DNA of 64,000 bases from Eledone cirrhosa (lineage: Eukaryota). The stretch is taken from assembly GCA_964016885.1 (NCBI GenBank), contig OZ024750.1, positions 23,684,001 through 23,748,000 on the forward strand, in the 5' to 3' direction. Under the pieces are notes generated by a model. It made no database searches. It was not told where the DNA came from and saw only the letters and a program-made list of their open reading frames with translations. Every line of letters begins with the position of its first letter. The first letter of the stretch is position 1. A program made the translations under genes and the position numbers. Of the stretch, positions 2,607 to 59,921 are shown piece after piece.

Positions 2607-3413
2607 TTGGAGATAATATCTATGACATGGAAATATTAAGTTTGGTGCAAGAGCGTGCAGTTAACCCACCAAGATTGAGAGGCCCCTAGTCCTTCTAACC
2701 TCTCATGTAAAACCCGTGACTCAATGGTAATCAATGATGTTGACTTGTTTTTCTTTTGGGATACCTGTCACCTACAGTGACAGGTATCCAAAGGCTTTTC
2801 TTCACTTAAAAAAGCTTCAAACACAGGCATCACTTGATCTAAATGACCTCCGCATGTGTTGCATGAGCATAGCCTTTTCTTTTCTTTATGTGTGTTTGTG
2901 TGTGTTTCATCATCAACTTGTCCATGCTGGCATGGGCTGGAAGGGTCTTTTTGAGGCAATCTTTTATAGCCAGATGCTTTACCTGACACCAACCCTTTTA
3001 GTCACTTCTTGTAACACACAGGGATAAAGAGTACTTATACTAAACTGGTTATATATATATATTAAGTATTGAGTACTCTGGTGCGTTATGGTCCATCTGG
3101 TTCCTTACCACAACTCCTTCGTTATATATATATATTTGTCTATTATTTCTCCATAGATACATTTTAAACTTATAGTCTCGTTTAAATGATTTTATATGTG
3201 GTTGATTTATACAGATTAGGAGAGGAAATACTGTATATATTTTATCTAATAGTTCTTCAAACTTGCAATTTTATATATAGCTCTGATTAATGATTATTTG
3301 CTTAATTAATTCTTCATTGAGCCACACCGTGAAAGGTTGCCAAACTCATATATGTATCTGTGACTATGTCTAATTATATATATATATATATATATACCCC
3401 TTTGAATTTAATA

Positions 3414-3443
<30 letters not shown>

Positions 3444-3781: not shown

Positions 3782-4015
3782 ATGTGAGACACACACATAT
3801 ATATATAGTGTAGGTAGTATAATAAAATACTGATGTTGGTACAAAAATATATCTTTTGTCGCATCACCATTCTGAGAAGCAGATCGATATTGGAGTCGGG
3901 TCCAAAACCCTTATGGGTCACCTTGAGCCAATCTTCTGCGAAACGCACGTAACCGGTTGATATGCAATAAATATTTTTCATATGTAAATAAGACTTCCTC
4001 GTTTTTTTCTATTAT
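3782..4015 (+). mobile_element. (TA)n-associated element with the same variant hammerhead-like motif
   Basis: CTTGA-GC-N9-GC-GAAAC-GCAC-GTA at 3922-3951, then AATAAA and a CCTCGTTTTT tail. The tail recurs at about 34291-34340. The 5' boundary is approximate. Confidence 0.55.
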
Positions 4016-7175: not shown

Positions 7176-7211
7176 TCTTAACGTTTCGGACGCTAGTCCT
7201 TCATCAGAAGA
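7176..7211 (-). ncRNA. Minimal type I hammerhead ribozyme (Penelope-type)
   Basis: Minus strand reads tctt CTGATGA a ggac tagc gtcc GAAA cg TT aaga: 4-bp stems I and II, palindromic AACGTT in place of stem III; lies in a ~220-bp island between (TA)n tracts. Confidence 0.8.
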
Positions 7212-8935
7212 AAGAATTAGAAATAGGATAGATTGAAGGGACGGGCGGGTTGGAATTGGAAAAAATGTCTTTAGATAAAAATAACAGGTCCATTCATGTT
7301 GACATCTCTCTCTCTATATATATATATACACATATATGTATTTGAACAATAAAAACAGAGGTCAGGTGTAGGTAGATAGTTAGTTCATTGTTTTAGGATC
7401 GTTTCAGAGGGTTGATTGTTCAATGGAGATTGATGTATCAACTAACATGGTAGTGATTAAGTTACTACCTATTTCTAGTCTCGAAAACTCTGTTCAATCA
7501 GCCGATATATATATATATATATATTATATATCGACAAAAAGCATCAAGTTACTCCATCTAAAAAGCATCAAGTCCACACTGTAAAGTGTGTCATGGCAAA
7601 AAACACCTAGTCCACACTGTAAAGTGGTTGTGTAAAAGTCACAGCAAAAAGCGCCCAGTACTCACTGTAAATGAGGTTGGTGTTAGGAACAGCATCCAGC
7701 TGTAGAAATCAAGCCCAAATCAGTTCTGTATGAGCAAGACATGGTCACCTGACCTGGCATTGCTCACAACAGGACAACTCATCTAACCCATGCTAGCTGT
7801 AGAAATCAAGCCAGAAACAGTTCTGATGAGCAGGATAGTCACCTGACCCAACCTGCTTCAAATGGAATAACCCGTTTAACCCATGCTAGCATGGAAGGTG
7901 GACGTTAAACAGCGATGATGATGATAATGATGATATATATATGAATAAATTCTATTTCTAAAGTAATTTTTGTTACAATTAATACCCTATTAAAATTATG
8001 GTGATGAGGATTTATCATCATCATCATCATCAATTTCTACATTCACTTTTCCATACTGGCATGGGTTCGACAGTGTTTTACAACTAGATGCCCTTCCAAA
8101 GGCCAACCCTTTTAGTGGCTTTTTATGATATGCAGGGATACGCTGTACCTATTTTAAACTATGGGATACATACAGTTTTGTCTACAAAATATAGATATTG
8201 GTTCTATGATTTTTGGAAAATTGTAAAAGACATAGGTTCCAAAAACAGGTTCAGAAAAAAAATTCTGGGGTTCCATTGATTAGAAAATCTTCTAATAAAA
8301 TTTTATAAAAAATACATTATATAAGTTCTTTTATATTAAAAATATTCTCTGTCTAAAACAACTTTTGTTAAATTTAATGTAGTGTTAAAGTTAGGGTAGT
8401 AGTGATTGTTTGGAAAATATAGGTATGGGTTCTGAGAATTTGGGAATGTTGTATAAGATAATGTTTACTAAAGTGGGTTCTAGGGAAACCCAGGGATTTA
8501 CAAAACATTTCTAGGATTCCACAAGACAAGGTGTCTTTTAATAAAATTTTATGATAATGTATGTGGTTGTTTTTCATATACATATATATATTATTTCTCT
8601 AAAATAATTTTGGTTTAATTTAATATCTAACCCTTTTGATGCCAACCTGCACAACATTTCCCATCGCCATCTTTTGTGTTCTATTAATTCTAAAACATTA
8701 GAACATTTTTCACAGATCGCAGTGTTCATGTGACAAACGGACAAAATGACTACAGTTATTATTATATAGCAAGTGAAAACAGTAATATGATGTAACGATA
8801 CAACCAACTATATATATATATATATAGCACTTATACAGTGCTATAAATATATTTATATATATCTAGCAATCTTGATACAATATATGATAATAACCTATAA
8901 CTAATAGTTACCAATGTGTATGTTTGTGTACATGA

Positions 8936-12616: not shown

Positions 12617-12795
12617 TATATATGTATATATGCATATATATGTATATATATATATATATACGTAGGTCCCGGGTTGAGTCGGGGATTGAAGATTTCATCT
12701 GAATGAAACAGTACTAGTCCTGTAGAAGCTCCTTCTATAAAATAATATATATATATATATATATGCATATATATGTATATATGCATATATATGTA

Positions 12796-20772: not shown

Positions 20773-21107
20773 CATCATCACCATCATTTTACATCCGCCT
20801 TTTCCCTGCTTGCAAGGGTGGGACGGGAACTAATTCTGGCTTAATTTCTACAGCTGGATGCCCTTTCTAACACCAACCTTATTTACAGTGAATGCTGGGT
20901 GCTTTTTTGCCGTGGCACCTCCACGACTACTTTGCAGTGGAATGATAGGGACCCCAGTCTCTATCATCTCATTTCTACAGCTGAGTAAACTGGAGCAATG
21001 TGAAATAAAGTGTCTTGCTCAAGGAAACAACACATCACCCGGTCTGAGAATTGAACTCACAACCTTTCGATTGCAAGCCCAATGCTCTAACCACTAAGCC
21101 ATGCACC
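20773..21107 (-). mobile_element. tRNA-derived SINE family 2 with RTE-type (GAT)n tail and 9-bp TSD
   Basis: Head tggcttagtggttagagc..gagttcaattc; core ccttgagcaagacacttta; TSD ttccaatat at 20764-20772 and 21108-21116. Confidence 0.85.
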
Positions 21108-28458: not shown

Positions 28459-29419
28459 GATTTCTTATATATATATACATATATATACTATGTTGATATT
28501 ACATATTGTAGTAGATATACTATGTCTATATTACATATTACAATATACTATGCTTGTATTATATATTGTCGTAAATACTATGCTGCTATTACATATTCTA
28601 GTAGATATTCTGTTACTATTTCATACTGTAGTAACTACACTAATGAAATAGTAACAAAGATTATCTACTGAAATGTGTAATAGCAGCATAGTGTATCTAC
28701 TACAATTACTACACAATGTAATAGTAAATGTTTCTACTTTAGGCACAAAGCCAGCAATTACTCAGTGCATTACTGGTACTTTATTTTATCGACCCCGTAA
28801 GGATGAGAGGCAAAGTCAACCTCGGCGGGATTTGAACTCAGAAGTAATATAATACTATATCTACTACAATACTACATACTAATGTAATATTTAGTATTAG
28901 TGTAGAGAGGGGCAGGCAGTCAGGCAGGTAGATAGATGGAGAGAGTGAAAGAAGAAAGAGGAAGAGATAGTAAAGAAACGTTATTCCTTTGTGTTTGTAA
29001 GTCCAAGCGGTTGTTGTTGGCTGCTGGCTGGCAGTCACAGCTGGTCTAGTTACGCTTTACTGAACAATTCTATTACTATATATCGATATATATATCTATC
29101 TATCTCTATTTATCAATCTATCTCTCCAGTTACGATTTACTGAACACGTCATTCTATCTCTCTATCCTTCTTATCGACTCTCTCTCTTTCTCCCTCTGTC
29201 TCTATATACTGTATATATATATATAAAAATATTTTGCTTGTTGTGGTCCCAACAAATTAAATATAACCTCTACATATATATATATATATCCATATATATA
29301 TATGTAGTGATAGATACAAAAATATTTTGCTTGTTGTGGTCCCAACAAATTAAATATAACCTCTACATATATATATATATATCCATATATATATATATGT
29401 AGTGATAGATACATAAATA

Positions 29420-29458
<39 letters not shown>

Positions 29459-29631
29459 ATATATATATATATATATACATATATATTTATGTATCTATCA
29501 CTCTCCGCTGTCTGATGAAGCCACTAGTCCTGACTGAATCCGGGGGGGGGGGGTATTGACTGCAACATCAGCAGCATGTGTAAAGAAAGACAAAGGAACA
29601 ACACTGACAAAGACAATGGGGAGTAGAGTGA

Positions 29632-30482: not shown

Positions 30483-32254
30483 TTAACAGTTTGTCAGAAA
30501 TTTAAGGACCTTAAGATCCAAAAGAATAGAGAATTACGCTCCATTTGCAATAAGATTAGAAACTAGGGAAGAGAGGGCAATAATGATGAAAATTAGTAGT
30601 TACCCATAATAAATACTTAAATAATTTGTTGGTATTATCGATAGAACGTCAGACACCAGGCTTTGCAGCATATGGTTATGGCCCTTTACGTTCTGAGTTC
30701 AAATCCCGCCGAGATTAGCTTTGCCTTTCATCCTTACGGGATAATATAAAGCACATGTAATGCACTGGGGTAATTGCTGGCCTTGTGCCAAAAGTAGAAA
30801 CAATTATTATAGAAAGACACCCCACCGATTTCAGTGGGGAAATAATTTTTTATTGTTTTTTTTTTTTATCTTGTGTGTTATCAATTAAACTTACTTCTTA
30901 AAATGATCCTAAGGACTTTTTTGCCAGAAAGGGGACCAAGAGAGAGAAGGGAGGGACCTCGGACGTTCCAACTTCACGGTGGAAAGGCTATTAAGGAGGT
31001 GGCGACACAGTAAAAATATTGTTTGGGAAACTCTGGCTTAAGTAATAAAATAACGGGTTCGAACACTGTATAATACCGTTCAAATTAAGTACACTCTTAA
31101 AAGAAAAGAGACATAGGGTAATAATATATATCCCTGGACACATACTGATAAAATAAAACACGCAATGGTCATGGCTAGCCTCGAGTTGACCAAAGCCTTG
31201 TGAGTGGAATTTAGTGGACGGAAACCGCATAAATCCGTCGTATATTGATGTCTGCCTGTGAATAGGTCTCTGTCCGTGTGTGTTTACGTCTGACTGTATT
31301 TATGTCTCCCAATTTAGAGGTTCGTCAAAAAGGAGATCGATAAAATAAGTACCAGACTCCAAGAAATAAAAGTACTGGCGTCGTCGACATATCCGACTTA
31401 ATCAAGGCCGTATAGTCTAATGACTGAAACAAGTAAAAACGTTTTTAAAAAAAGTGTCTTTCATTACAAATATAGTAATGAAATGTTTATTGGTGTGTAG
31501 ATAATGGTCAAAGAAAGCCTGCAGATGTTCTACGGGTAGTAAAGCATTGATGACACATCAGTGCACGGGTTCAGATCACAACACCAGATGATTGCAGGAA
31601 GAAATATATATTGTGCGTGTGGTTCTGCGTTCAGTCCCACCGCGTAGCACCGTAGGCAAGTGGTGCCTTCTACTATAGCCTCGGGTTGACCAATGGCATG
31701 TGAGTGGAATTAGAAACTGCAGGTGTTTGTTGTATATACAACGGCTGCAATTTGATGAGGTCCGTCGCCCACATACCAGTAACTAGTGTAGGCTTGTTTG
31801 GTTATTATCATAACTAGGAGTATTTTAGGTATGGTCCTGAAGGATGAGATTGTTTTTTCTTTATGCTTAGTGTTAATATATAAATGGTGGGCCGGGTTGA
31901 CTATAGGTTTATGGATATTTGCTTCAGTTCGTAATAGAGTTAGTTTGGTGTTGACGTTCGTATTTCAAATAAATAGCATATTTCAATAACAGCCATAGTT
32001 ATATGTGTGTGTGTGTGTGTCGTAACGTAACGGTTCGACAAAAAGAAGATCGATAAATTAAGTATCAGACTTGAAAAAATAAGCTCTTGGATCGATGATT
32101 CACTAGGTCTCATTAAGGCGAGGCCATAGCATGACCGCAGTCTAATGACTAAAACCAGTTAAAAGATTATATATATAATCCTTATCGAGCCCTTTTCGGA
32201 TTTTCGTCTTCATAATTATTATTACTATATATATATATATATATTATATATATA

Positions 32255-32290
<36 letters not shown>

Positions 32291-32294
<4 letters not shown>

Positions 32295-32387
32295 ATAATA
32301 ATTATAAAGTCTTGAGCTGACCAATCGCGAAACGCGCGTCACACCTCAATAAATGTATTGAAGATCTAACACCTCGTCGTTTTTATC

Positions 32388-32424
<37 letters not shown>

Positions 32425-32637
32425 ATAATAATTATAAAGTCTTGAGCTGACCAATCGCGAAACGCGCGTCACACCTCAATAAATGTATTGAAGATCTAAC
32501 ACCTCGTCGTTTTTATCATTATATATATATATATATATATAGTAATAATAATTATAAAGTCTTGAGCTGACCAATCGCGAAACGCGCGTCACACCTCAAT
32601 AAATGTATTGAAGATCTAACACCTCGTCGTTTTTATC

Positions 32638-32688
<51 letters not shown>

Positions 32689-32784
32689 ATAATAATTATA
32701 AAGTCTTGAGCTGACCAATCGCGAAACGCGCGTCACACCTCAATAAATGTATTGAAGATCTAACACCTCATCGTTTTTATCATT
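32291..32784 (+). repeat. Four 100-bp tandem units separated by (TA)n spacers, each with a hammerhead-like motif
   Basis: Units start at 32291, 32421, 32541 and 32685; identical except one substitution in unit 4; spacers of 30, 20 and 44 nt; motif CTTGA-GC-N9-GC-GAAAC-GCGC-GTC followed by AATAAA. Confidence 0.85.
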
Positions 32785-32894
32785 ATATATATATATAATT
32801 ATAGCTCTGATTCATCTGAATTATTGAGCCCTCTGCCGCTCATATCGAATCTCGTTTATCGTGAACTCGTGCGCCGATTTTTCGATACTCGGTC

Positions 32895-32939
<45 letters not shown>

Positions 32940-33481: not shown

Positions 33482-34198
33482 CGTTCATACATACGTACAG
33501 CGCACAGCACATACACGACATTATATTTACTTTATTTCATGCATATATCATCATGCACGATATATATACACACGCTATATACAGATATACTAGAATATGT
33601 CATATATATACAGACAGGCGCTCTCCTTATACATACATTATACAAAAAAAATGACAAAATACATACGCATACAGTGAAACAGCATACATTATACATATAG
33701 TTAGTGATGCTGCATACATTATAATATAAAGTTGCACAGTATAAATTAGGTATCCATACAGATAAATTAGGTTATACATACAAACACACTATATATTATA
33801 TACACAGAGATGCATTATATACACATAAAAATATATTATATACACATAAAAATATATTATATACTTAAACAAACTACTATATATTACACACACATATATA
33901 TAATGTATGTATACAGAACTGATATACATATAAACATACAATATATGTATGATATATACATATATAGTGAATACTTAATACAGAAGCAGACATGCATAAC
34001 ATATATACGTTTATAATCGTACAATATATAGCCTGTGTTTATAATCACCGTCGTCTCAGACTGCACTAAATATAGGCTATATACACACACAATAATTCAA
34101 GATTATATATATATATATATATATATATAAATGAAAAGTATAGAAATTATTGTATCAAGAAGCCAACAGTATTCCATAATATATAAGTGACTATAGCA

Positions 34199-34236
<38 letters not shown>

Positions 34237-34337
34237 TAACCAGTGTGCGTACAGGTATATATGTGCGTATACGTATATAAATCTGTGTGTATTAAATATT
34301 TTTCATATGTAAACGAAACTTCCTCGTTTTTTTCTAT

Positions 34338-35317: not shown

Positions 35318-35391
<74 letters not shown>

Positions 35392-35632
35392 GAAAAGTAT
35401 AGAAATTGTTGTAGCGAGAAGCTAACAGTATTCCATATATATATATATATACATACATACACATATATATATATACATATAGAGAGACACACACGTGTGT
35501 GTGTGTGTATATATATACTATATATATATATACATATAGAGAGAGACACATGTGTGTGTACATACATACATACATATAGAGACACGTGTGTGTGTGTGTA
35601 CATACATACATACATACATATAGAAAGACACA

Positions 35633-35697: not shown

Positions 35698-35854
35698 GTA
35701 TCACGGGTTCAATCGGAGGTAACCACAGTAAGAAAGGTACTCAATACAGAGCAGAGTACAAATGTCTAATATATAAAAATGGCTTCTACAGGACTAGAAC
35801 TGTTTCATTCGAAGGAAACAGTTCTAGTCCTGGAGAAGCCATTTCTATATATTA
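35698..35854 (-). mobile_element. Hairpin+tail element with hammerhead 3' half
   Basis: 44-bp arms at 35767-35854 with 3 mismatches and no loop; GAAACAGTTCTAGTC motif shared with 12705-12719; tail contains gtattgagtac. Confidence 0.65.
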
Positions 35855-35956
35855 AATATATATATATATAATATATATATATGCCAATATATATATATGC
35901 ATATATACAGACACACTGCATACATATATGCATACGTATGTATTTATATATGTGTT

Positions 35957-50970: not shown

Positions 50971-51102
50971 TTAACCAAAGATGGCACCACAGTTGGGACA
51001 TCTCCGTTGTCTCATGGCTAAACAACAAAGAATTCCTAAGGGGAAAAACATCAAAGCACACAGCACTCCTAGACATGTGAAGTCATCTTCAAGAATGCCA
51101 AC
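50971..51102 (-). CDS. BRI3: BRI3 homolog, last coding exon ([43 protein letters not shown])
   Basis: Acceptor ttttctctttcag|GTT (phase 0). Joins to give [14 protein letters not shown], hydrophobic segment FFPLGILCC and second CxxC (CPNC). TAA stop. Total CDS 369 nt = 122 aa. Confidence 0.95.
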
Positions 51103-51250
51103 CTGAAAGAGAAAAAAAACAATTAGAATGAATTTTCTGTATTTTTTTAATAAATGGGTTACTGCTGCAGTTCCTAATATTTTCACTACCAAAGAGCTTT
51201 ATTAAAACCTTTTGATACCAACCTGCCCAAATCTACCTGTTTCTATTGTA

Positions 51251-51802: not shown

Positions 51803-52552
51803 GTGGCTAGTTATTTTTCCTTTTACTGTTTAGTCAGGTAGGAGAGGGCAGTGCCCATGATCTTTTTCAGGATCTCCAAAATTGTTGAGAGAGGAAGTTT
51901 GCTGTTTTTCTTTTTTAAGAGTTTATATTTATCTAAAAATCTATTATAATTTTATGTCATAACCATTGTTAAGCTACATTACAAACATCCAATAAAAAGT
52001 GCGAAGTTATATTACAAAAGCCCTCCAATTTTTTTTTTTTTTTCAAAATGATTTGAAAATTATAAACATTGTTGTTCATTAGAAATATAGTAGTGAAAGG
52101 GTTAAGGTGTATATTTCTCTAAAAACTATAAGCATCATTAGAAATATGGTAATGAAAGTGCTAACAAAGTACTTGAAATTTTGAACTTACTTTACAGACC
52201 CTAGGTTAGGAACCACTGATATAAAGCAAAACTTAAAACAAAGTGTATCTTCATCCTTTTGATAGTAACCGGCTCAAAACTAACCCTGGTTCTATAAAAC
52301 AAAACCACCCATTTTAAAGGGTTGCTATTCAAATTAAAACCTAACATTACTTGATAAATGATGAACATTTTGTTAACTTGTGTCACAAATGACATCTTAT
52401 TAATGAAATATTAATGTCTTCATTAACTCAAATTTCATGTTAACATGAAAAAAAATTGATGTCAAATAAAGATTATGGTTCTGATGATGGCAGTGTATTT
52501 TATTAGAAATATGTTAATAAAATGGTTAAAAAAAAGGAGAATGAGTACTGAC

Positions 52553-52683
52553 CCTGCAAGCTGGACAACCTCCAACAACAACTACTTGTGGTGGTGGCTG
52601 AACAGTAACAGTTGTGTGTTGATGTGGGGGATAATAGCCTGGCATTGGCTGTTGGCTCATAGAACCATAGTTTCCAGTGTAAC
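52553..52683 (-). CDS. BRI3: BRI3 homolog, coding exon 2 (GYTGNYGSMSQQPMPGYYPPHQHTTVTVQPPPQVVVVGGCPACR)
   Basis: Polypyrimidine acceptor tctctctttctttgcag|GT (phase 1); donor AGG|gtcagt (phase 0); VVVGGCPACR is the hallmark BRI3 motif. Confidence 0.93.
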
Positions 52684-54006
52684 CTGCAAAGAAAGAGAGA
52701 GAAATGTCAAAATTTGCATAAATTTTCTCAAAGCTACTTTTCAAAGAAGGCAGCCAATTGACAGAGTTATTAAGGTGACAGATTCAAATTGACTGTATTT
52801 CTTCCAGCTCACTGTGCTCTGAGTTCCACTCTTGCCAAGGTGAACTTTACCTTTCATTTTTTCAAGGGCAGTAAATAAACTATCAGTTCAATATTGGGGT
52901 TCATTTTTCCTAACTTTTTATCACTAAGTTTTTATCTCTGGAAGAAACTGGCTGTGTTCCAACTTGGAGAAGGATGGGCTCAGAGGCTTGTGTCTGACCG
53001 TAGCCCCTACAATTCCATTTACCTTTTATTTTACTGTACATCTGAAAAACTGAAAAATTGTAATTGTTACCACTTTTAAAAAAATGTTTTATCTGTATTT
53101 TTATAGTTTTGGCATAGTTTTTCTGACCAGATGCTCCTCTTATCCCTAACCACGTCACAGCTTGGAATAGGTACATTTTACCATGCCACCAGCACTAAAG
53201 ATGTCTGTCATAATTTAAGTGTCCTCTACATTGCATCAGTTTTAATTATGAGTGATTGCTTTCCAAGACAGGTTGCTTTCACCAGTGCAATTTGAAAAAA
53301 GATACATAAACTTGAAGTAGATACCATCCTTATTTCTATGTCCACTTTTACATGCTAGCATGGATTAGACAAAACATTTTTGAGGCAATTTTTCTATGGC
53401 CAGATGCCCTTCATGATGCCAACCTTTATCTTAATTCTAAGTATGGTACATACTACTAATCTTCATTAAATTGTTACGGGATGGGCCATATTGTTACTTG
53501 CTTCAACATATGCTTAGTGGTTAGAGAATTTGATTCGCAATTGTGGGGTTGCAAACTGGATTCCCAGATCAAGTGATGTGTTATGTCCTTGAGAATAATT
53601 CACACTGTTCTTTTTGCCAGGAGTTGCAACTGACAGACAGTATCAACAATGGAAAGACCAATGAAAACATTGTATTCTTCGTTCAATAGGCCAAGTACCA
53701 CCCCACTCAGTAAGTGAATGAGGTCTGGGATCATGTCAATTCCTAAAATACACACACACACATATATACTATAAGAATAAAGGAACAAAAAGTGGTGCAT
53801 AATAACATGTTTCACTGTCGATCAGCTCGAGGAACGATCTATTACCACACACACACGCACACAATATGAAGAGCCAAATGTCCAGCTGCTCCATCTATGG
53901 AACAAGCCTTTCCACAATATTAATGTGCAAGTGGCTGAGCATTCCCACAATGCTAGCGTGGAAGATGGACATTCAACGATGATGATGATGATGAGTGTAC
54001 CCTTAA

Positions 54007-55197: not shown

Positions 55198-55545
55198 CAT
55201 CATCATCATCATCATCATTTCATTTCACGTCCGCTTTTTCCCTGCTTGCAAGGGTGGGACGGGAACTGATGGTGGCTTGATTTCTACAGCTGGATGCCCT
55301 TCCTAACACCAACCTCATTTACAGTGAATGCTGGGTGCTCTTTTGCTGTGGCACCTCCACGACCACTTTGCAGTGGTATGATATGGACCCCAGTCCCTAT
55401 CATCTCATTTCTACAGCTGAGTAAACTGGAGCAATGTGAAATAAAGTGTCTTGCTCAAGGAAACAACACATCACCCAGTCTGAGAATTGAACTCACAACC
55501 TTTCGATTGCAAGGCCAATGCTCTAACCACTAAGCCATGTGCCTC
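55198..55545 (-). mobile_element. SINE family 2, close relative of 20773-21107, in BRI3 intron
   Basis: Colinear, high-identity match over the whole length. Confidence 0.85.
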
Positions 55546-59499: not shown

Positions 59500-59690
59500 T
59501 AGGAAAAAGTTTAACCCCGACGGCAGGGCTCAAGCCGTTTCTGGACTCTGGAGTCCAGAAATAGCTGTCGAAATGGCTTGTACTCTGTCGTCGGGGTTAA
59601 ACTTTTTCTTATTACCCACTCTATCCTAAGTATTGAGTACTCTGGTGCGTTATGGTTCATCTGGTTCCTTACCACACCTCCTTTGATGTT

Positions 59691-59724
<34 letters not shown>

Positions 59725-59919
59725 AACGAGTAGGACCCCGACGGTTGAGCTCAAGCCGTTTCGACGTTTCAACGGCTAATTCAGTCCAGAATTAGCCGTC
59801 GAAATTGCTTGAGCTCAGCTGTCGGGGTCCTACTCGTTCCTATTACCCACTCTACTACCCTAAGTATTGAGTACTTTGGTGCGTTATGGTCCACCTGGTT
59901 CCTTACCACATTTCCTTCG

Positions 59920-59921
<2 letters not shown>
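59500..59921 (+). mobile_element. Two tandem related hairpin+tail elements in (TA)n, each with a hammerhead 3' half
   Basis: Hairpins at 59500-59611 and 59721-59842; shared tail taagtattgagtact..ggtgcgttatgg..ggttccttaccaca, also present alone at 3063-3123. Confidence 0.7.

Follow-up and report, generated by a model that had tools for sequence, protein, structure and literature searches.

The closest described systems to the locus analysed here are the Penelope-like elements (PLEs) of metazoans and the non-LTR retrozymes. According to the supplement of PMC4209133, the metazoan PLE ribozyme consensus comprises CUGANGAH, a helix II of the form G...C, GAAAN, a palindrome and NUH. 5' truncation affects most PLE copies, which show tandem and inverted pieces and target (TA)n (PMC8557442), and the local amplification of PLE termini into tandem repeats has been proposed (10.64898/2026.07.22.740005). 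By the definition in the latter source, a non-LTR retrozyme requires two or more tandem units in succession, every one carrying a complete hammerhead. Octopus is among the sources listed for Hydra and Naiad families (Craig et al. 2021, PMC8557442), and PLEs make up 6.83% of O. vulgaris (190 families; PMC13282606, supplement); fragments of such elements are thus common.

The locus of interest is a tandem array in a 64-kb stretch of octopus DNA (the window). It is most likely a real, young, four-copy duplication of a retroelement end that carries a dead half-ribozyme. A previous, sequence-only reading described four copies of a 100-bp unit with spacers of 30, 20 and 44 nt; this corresponds to four units of 98 bp with spacers of 32, 22 and 46 nt, the difference being one flanking TA base counted per side (Table 1). 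All three spacers are pure (TA)n. Three of the units are identical, and only one of the 98 columns is variable: a G>A change at 32770 in unit 4, which is a CpG transition. Tandem Repeats Finder (TRF) periods for the array (32292–32783) are 120–144, and the exact unit has no second copy elsewhere in the 64-kb window. Each unit opens with 18 nt, not remarked on in the earlier reading, that repeat 32208–32225 in inverted orientation from across the left TA run (17/18 identical), and the chimeric 5' junction that results is the same in all four units. The window as a whole is AT-rich, with 111 merged TA runs of at least 12 nt; inverted flanks scoring at least 10 were found at 26 of these, 24 of which were judged to be simple sequence and two unique. 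The informative open frame of the array is 26 residues long.

Table 1. Positions in the window of the array, its hammerhead-like parts and its longer relative.
Feature	Position	Strand	Basis
48-bp TA-flanked fragment left of the array; last 18 nt an inverted match to the unit start	32178..32225	+	
Left (TA)n run, 66 nt, two phase interruptions	32226..32291	.	
Unit 1, 98 bp: 18-nt inverted piece plus putative 80-nt Penelope-like 3' end	32292..32389	+	
Inverted 18-nt piece making the 5' junction, unit 1	32292..32309	-	
Probable orphan 3' strand of helix II (CTTGA-GC-N9-GC), ending in C11.1	32311..32328	+	inferred from homologue
3' half of hammerhead core: GAAA, palindromic helix III (32332-32339), cleavage triplet ending at 32340	32329..32340	+	identical to Rfam Hammerhead_1 consensus there
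Putative orphan 3' strand of helix I, then AATAAA (32348-32353)	32341..32353	+	sequence reading
(TA)16 spacer	32390..32421	.	
Unit 2, same sequence as unit 1	32422..32519	+	
(TA)11 spacer	32520..32541	.	
Unit 3, same sequence as unit 1	32542..32639	+	
(TA)23 spacer	32640..32685	.	
Unit 4, single G>A at CpG (32770)	32686..32783	+	
Right (TA)7 run	32784..32797	.	
Longer TA-flanked relative, 205 bp, complete but imperfect type I hammerhead topology	3808..4012	+	
Parts of the relative: helix I 3855-3871/3952-3971, core CTGAGAA 3872-3878, helix II 3879-3939, GAAA 3940, triplet end 3951, AATAAA 3966			
5'-truncated 3' end of the 3808 family, stops at (TA)n at the same base	34291..34337	+	nhmmer E 4e-4

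Hammerhead positions are numbered here by the general convention. The motif letters given in the earlier reading, AATAAA included, are all present: in unit 1, CTTGA occupies 32311–32315, GAAA 32329–32332 and the palindrome 32332–32339, followed by the C at 32340. The GAAA, the A15.1–U16.1 pair and the NUH triplet agree with the RF00163 consensus. The pattern CTTGAGC-N9-GCGAAACGCRCGT occurs five times in the window (the four units and 3922), the mean over 100 shuffles being 0.00; since the pattern was composed from its own copies, this count shows only that it is not background.

At gathering level, an Rfam search of the whole window returned two tRNA-like matches and no ribozymes. Rfam searches by E-value gave only a sub-threshold Hammerhead_1 match in the array, at 32311–32350 (19.3 bits, E 0.012 on 98 nt; gathering score 34), and none for the longer relative at 3808–4012. 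The canonical motif at 7207 was likewise missed at gathering level. This motif (7207–7175, minus strand) is a PLE-type minimal hammerhead with CTGATGA plus a bulge, 4-bp helices I and II and no loop III, and served as the positive control.

Complete hammerheads were sought by enumeration, combining a core of at most one mismatch with GAAA and UH in any order; units 1 and 2 were covered within and between units and on both strands, and the whole array was covered on the plus strand with slightly stricter helices. No solution was found in the array in any register or topology, and the control at 7207 was recovered. The exact 5' core (CUGANGA or the U3–A8 variant) is absent from the array, and the one-mismatch core candidates, two per unit (32317 and 32358), gave no structural solution. 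This disposed of three candidates: (i) the CUUGA core register, (ii) a CTGACCA core at 32317, and (iii) a TTGAAGA core at 32358, whether in type II topology or across units. Searches of the 510 nt upstream and of the sequence between units returned no source of the absent 5' half, and the plus strand does not contain the word predicted for helix II.

The array unit is an incomplete hammerhead whatever register is chosen. No unit, unit pair or strand holds a 5' core with its helix partners, so that the array, on these structural models, should be non-self-cleaving; as the same half is missing from every unit, dimer formation cannot rescue cleavage. The earlier view of a truncated, inactive copy is thus upheld as regards truncation, and inactivity is probable. 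The processing of a multimeric RNA to 120–145-nt monomers, proposed in the same reading, finds no support: every unit lacks the 5' half, and the dimer yields no solutions. What does hold is the proposed capacity for dimerisation through a palindromic stem III. Helix III of the unit is a perfect palindrome of 8 nt whose 8-bp duplex is worth -13.3 kcal/mol, and the predicted pairing probability between units in a two-unit transcript is ~0.12, at 2 kcal/mol above the minimum.

Identification of the longer relative, which the earlier reading did not mention, bears directly on how the unit's motif is read. Aligned to 3915–4012, the array unit scores 51, while the background maximum is 33 in 12,560 windows; the portion past the triplet alone scores 34, against a maximum of 32 in 25,158 background windows, and nhmmer gives E values of 0.02–0.04 per unit. 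CTTGAG, CCAATC, GCGAAACGC, CAATAAAT and a T-rich end are common to both, and the relative extends 5' beyond the point where the array unit stops. The link to Penelope made in the sequence-only reading is supported by terminal anatomy: the unit has the 3' half of a hammerhead-derived pseudo-LTR, and the relative the whole topology.

In the relative, CTTGAG..CCAATC forms the 3' side of a helix II domain of 61 nt; the core and the 5' strands of both helix I and helix II are found ~50 nt upstream of CTTGA. Its CTGAGAA (3872) is followed directly by a 5-bp helix, G-C first, that closes on the residues preceding GAAA; this core departs from the consensus by a single base (either position 7 is missing or G8 is mutated). 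The distance from CTTGA to G12 is 18 nt in both elements, and in the array CTTGA is therefore most simply an orphan 3' strand of helix II. By this comparison, CTTGA is probably not a shortened core, as had been proposed, and the unit probably lacks the 5' half of the ribozyme: in the sole longer relative CTTGA is paired inside helix II, with a near-canonical core 50 nt upstream. The suggestion that longer copies would complete stem I immediately before CTTGA also fails in the relative, where the preceding bases are not complementary to those past the cleavage triplet. The half-ribozyme reading, as drawn from these alignments, rests on one decayed relative of a different family, the ribozyme of which is itself imperfect.

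The 3808 family has a second member in the window, at 34291, which is identical to the longer relative in 44 of 47 columns. It stops before (TA)n at the family's end base, a pattern expected of 5'-truncated retrocopies. Several tests address the hammerhead of the relative itself, all designed after the match had been seen. Among shuffles of the upstream 114 nt, core plus helix II arose in 47 of 5000, and with the helix I duplex as well in 7 of 5000. Folded alone, the helix II domain reaches -18.1 kcal/mol with a closing-pair probability of 0.98–1.0 (z -1.92; 5 of 200 shuffles as good), and the hammerhead-constrained fold of the relative lies within 1.4 kcal/mol of the minimum. The segment 3858–3968 as a whole folds no better than shuffles (z 0.33), and helix I is extended but imperfect, with one possible pair next to the core and then two mismatches. 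A window-wide scan with a long-helix-II descriptor produced two matches, the relative and the canonical minimal hammerhead at 7207 (minus strand), and none in the array; as 37 of 200 shuffled windows yield at least one match, such a match is significant only by its position. The core/GAAA/UH enumeration is loose (seven solutions in the relative and eight at 12650–12760, with implausible cleavage sites) and serves as a pointer to helix II pairing only. A protein search with the 66 residues of the frame across the relative gave no candidate. These data suggest octopus Penelope families whose hammerhead has a helix II of ~60 nt and a core that possibly lacks position 7. The helix II domain of the relative far exceeds the 7–8 bp stated for PLE hammerheads in PMC4209133, and its core is CTGAGAA. 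As a long-helix-II hammerhead form missed by Rfam, the relative is the lead to retain.

Could the shortened core nevertheless be functional? The unit would then be a CUUGA hammerhead active as a dimer, its multimeric RNA processed to monomers in the manner of a non-LTR retrozyme. CTTGAGC and GCGAAACGC are indeed conserved at a spacing of exactly nine bases in two families, the GA/GA flanks and G-C first pair resemble hammerhead domain 2, and the palindromic helix III can pair between units. We nonetheless regard such activity as extremely unlikely. The 5' core lacks two of its seven positions, and changes to the hammerhead core are rare and damaging (PMC3088659). The helix I adjoining the array cleavage site has at most 2 bp, exactly as the earlier reading counted for stem I, with a pair probability of 0.0; C11.1 does occur, but the GC/GC helix II pairs with a probability of 0.004 and has no valid core before it. 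The relative has no helix I at this register, and described retrozyme units measure 150–450 bp and contain complete ribozymes (PMC7229834). Hardly any credence is due to an octopus Penelope-like lineage of two families with a CUUGA-core hammerhead (no G5–A6 turn) and dimer cleavage in TA-spaced tandems. That the array is a naturally split ribozyme, with four substrate halves that full-length family transcripts could cleave in trans, is likewise highly improbable.

The Rfam alignment places the unit in another register, in which it would be a whole but internally deleted, inactive hammerhead: helix I TTGAG/CTCAA, a CTGACCA core with G8 changed to C, helix II almost gone, and four extra bases past the triplet. 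The pairing itself is real in prediction, since TTGAG/CTCAA forms in the minimum-energy fold, CTCAA lying just past the site and CTGA directly behind TTGAG. That fold pairs the cleavage triplet too, however, and the alternative 5-bp helix I sits 4 nt from the cleavage site. This register is quite unlikely to be the true one, for its score is far under the gathering value, it requires two deletions at module borders, and the relative has neither the unit's CTGA nor its CTCAA, yet keeps CTTGAG at the same distance of 18 nt from GAAA. Of 20,000 shuffles, 444 placed a complement of TTGAG no more than 15 nt from the site; the combination of TTGAG/CTCAA and CTGA, which the half-ribozyme reading does not explain, could be accidental or a remnant of an internal deletion.

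Set beside the described systems, the array unit shares GAAA, a palindromic helix III and NUH with the minimal type I hammerheads of metazoan PLE pseudo-LTRs (PMC4209133; RF00163), as well as C11.1 before G12 and an AU-rich 3' flank (PMC4209133). A further shared likeness is that PLE minimal hammerheads are described there as mostly single motifs in truncated copies, with a longer-than-usual helix II. Unlike them, the array lacks a CUGANGAH or U3–A8 core as well as helix I and the 5' strand of helix II. The (TA)n insertion, putative 5' truncation and inverted 5' piece may recall the (TA)n-targeting EN+ PLE clades Neptune, Hydra and Naiad (PMC8557442). The array contains no ORF, so its PLE clade is not assignable; by elimination, our guess is a Neptune-like element. 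Within the supplement of PMC8557442, the motif words had no match in the Naiad, Chlamys and Hydra consensus files, where line breaks can hide words; the Hydra ribozymes listed have other helix III sequences, and Naiads are without canonical ribozymes. RT or GIY-YIG fragments were absent from the 300 longest of the window's 348 non-repetitive open frames, so that PLE membership is argued from terminal anatomy only; an RT plus GIY-YIG ORF is not expected in an 80-nt 3' end. On the same 300 frames, Pfam reported only the two coding exons of a BRI3 (brain protein I3) gene above cut-off, at 52529–52783 and 50974–51198 on the minus strand (best named match Octopus bimaculoides, 93% over the matched part).

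Metazoan non-LTR retrozymes (PMC7229834; Li et al. 2026, 10.64898/2026.07.22.740005) resemble the array in being head-to-tail tandems that are short, non-coding, low in GC, PLE-related and of hammerhead sequence. The array differs from them in three respects: (i) it has no complete ribozyme per unit, (ii) its 98-bp unit recurs with a period of 120–144 bp rather than 150–450 (PMC7229834), and (iii) its spacers are unequal microsatellites. By the published defining features, the array is neither a hammerhead ribozyme nor a non-LTR retrozyme. A GTDB scan for the motif gave 42 matches, none of which (0/42) has AATAAA past the site and which form at most three helix I pairs; as candidate relatives these were rejected, and are read as chance in bacterial DNA. 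Neither the GTDB scan nor the protein search returned relatives from outside the window. The motif is undescribed in the literature searched, where its sequence words led only to two unrelated papers.

The array is likely, in our view, to derive from a (TA)n-targeting Penelope-like element, as a 3' end truncated on its 5' side and subsequently duplicated in place by misalignment of TA runs. The unit would consist of the last ~80 nt (the pseudo-LTR end) of such a retroelement plus the 18-nt inverted piece, and three steps may have produced the array. Firstly, element RNA would have been reverse-transcribed from a nick in a TA run, with a stop inside the long helix II hairpin; kept after this step would be the 3' strand of helix II, GAAA, the palindromic helix III, GUC, the 3' strand of helix I, AATAAA and the T-rich end. 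Secondly, the 5' junction would have gained an inverted copy of DNA from across the TA run. Thirdly, misaligned recombination or slippage within the TA runs would recently have raised the TA-flanked 98-bp chimera to four copies, leaving unequal spacers. The same chimeric junction in four of four units, boundaries that always fall in TA, and unequal spacers fit in-place duplication after a single insertion, and the TA-mediated route is the one suggested mode of array building from the earlier reading that gains by this. Breakpoints in a simple repeat, unequal spacers and near-identical units are also what microsatellite-flanked tandem duplication (minisatellite birth, unequal crossover) looks like; here, unlike in the ordinary case, the duplicated unit is a retroelement end. 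The window holds a ribozyme-free precedent in a 93-bp, TA-containing tandem duplicate at 29217–29420, which adjoins a 16-nt inverted flank at 29417–29486 (29417–29502), the other of the two unique cases among the 111 TA runs. The 18-nt piece matches the flank and not the unit's own 3' end, though it could be a native family terminus instead of a local fold-back. In the 3808/34291 family, copies end at one fixed 3' base next to (TA)n but differ in their 5' extent; the array family is represented by one locus in the window.

Under the truncation-and-duplication reading, longer family copies are expected to retain an unbroken CTTGAGCTGACCAATC that forms the 3' side of a long hairpin. Upstream of CTTGAG they should show a loop and then a strand complementary to CCAATCGC, G-C first; 5' of the CCAATCGC-pairing strand, a CUGA-type core and the complement of ACACCTC would follow.

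Iterated priming is expected to give variable truncation points. The identity of all four junctions, including the piece that matches the local flank, accordingly speaks against a single retrotransposition event as the source of all four half-ribozyme copies, be it by iterated or rolling reverse transcription or as a multicopy head-to-tail non-autonomous insertion. Such an event would account for the near-identity of the units (one variable column in 98) as a recent occurrence, and has parallels in the multicopy head-to-tail insertions of non-autonomous Chlamys PLEs and in the partial tandems typical of PLEs (PMC8557442). It is unlikely here: the array has no working ribozyme that could generate a circular template, and every boundary lies inside a TA run. 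Rolling or iterative reverse transcription is not needed to explain the array.

That the extra copies were created in sequencing or assembly, at palindromic TA runs, is very unlikely. TA runs and the tandem and inverted structures of PLEs do trouble assemblies (PMC8557442), three of the four units are identical, and the window has several inverted duplicates at TA runs; against this, the sole difference between units is a CpG transition, an expected natural mutation, and the spacers differ widely in length.

The array is thus most likely ordinary, locally duplicated repeat debris: an uncatalogued retroelement end, of which octopus has very many, and a minor instance of a Penelope terminus on its way to a minisatellite without a working ribozyme. 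Since a ribozyme-dead end can be tandemly arranged, tandem form cannot by itself be taken as a sign of retrozyme-type rolling-circle spread. Activity of the shortened core, if real, would call for a revision of the hammerhead's minimal catalytic core; if the CUUGA variant were true, it would be a natural hammerhead without residues thought essential.

Several other TA-associated repeats lie in the window. Tandem copies of another repeat, separated by TA and each made of an inverted and a direct part, occupy 59502–59692 and 59723–59920; the 3' end of this repeat recurs at 3063–3122, and ~30 nt of its left flank is inverted on the right flank. A near-identical inverted duplicate of ~150 bp spans a TA run at 3441–3593/3614–3775. 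Two copies of a further TA-flanked short repeat end are found at 34130–34204 and 35389–35434, and two near-identical tRNA-like matches just over Rfam gathering (21044–21101, and 55476–55539 on the minus strand) are probably the heads of tRNA-derived SINEs.

Other segments show hammerhead-like traits or lie close to hammerhead-derived elements. The TA-flanked stretch at 7329–7504 (minus strand), the source of the best background score of 33, contains a GAAAC..TC stretch, and its 3' end resembles that of the array unit; it is possibly a further decayed relative, and was missed by the descriptor. Two TA-flanked members of one family, at 12661–12744 and 35760–35855, carry a degenerate hammerhead-like GAAACAG resembling the listed Hydra-clade motifs, the second forming an inverted-plus-direct hairpin. 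Finally, the segments 32798–32900, 3276–3345 and 23235–23212 (minus strand) share their initial word, GCTCTGATT, which follows TA; of these, the first two are next to or near hammerhead-derived elements, and may represent another terminus of such families.
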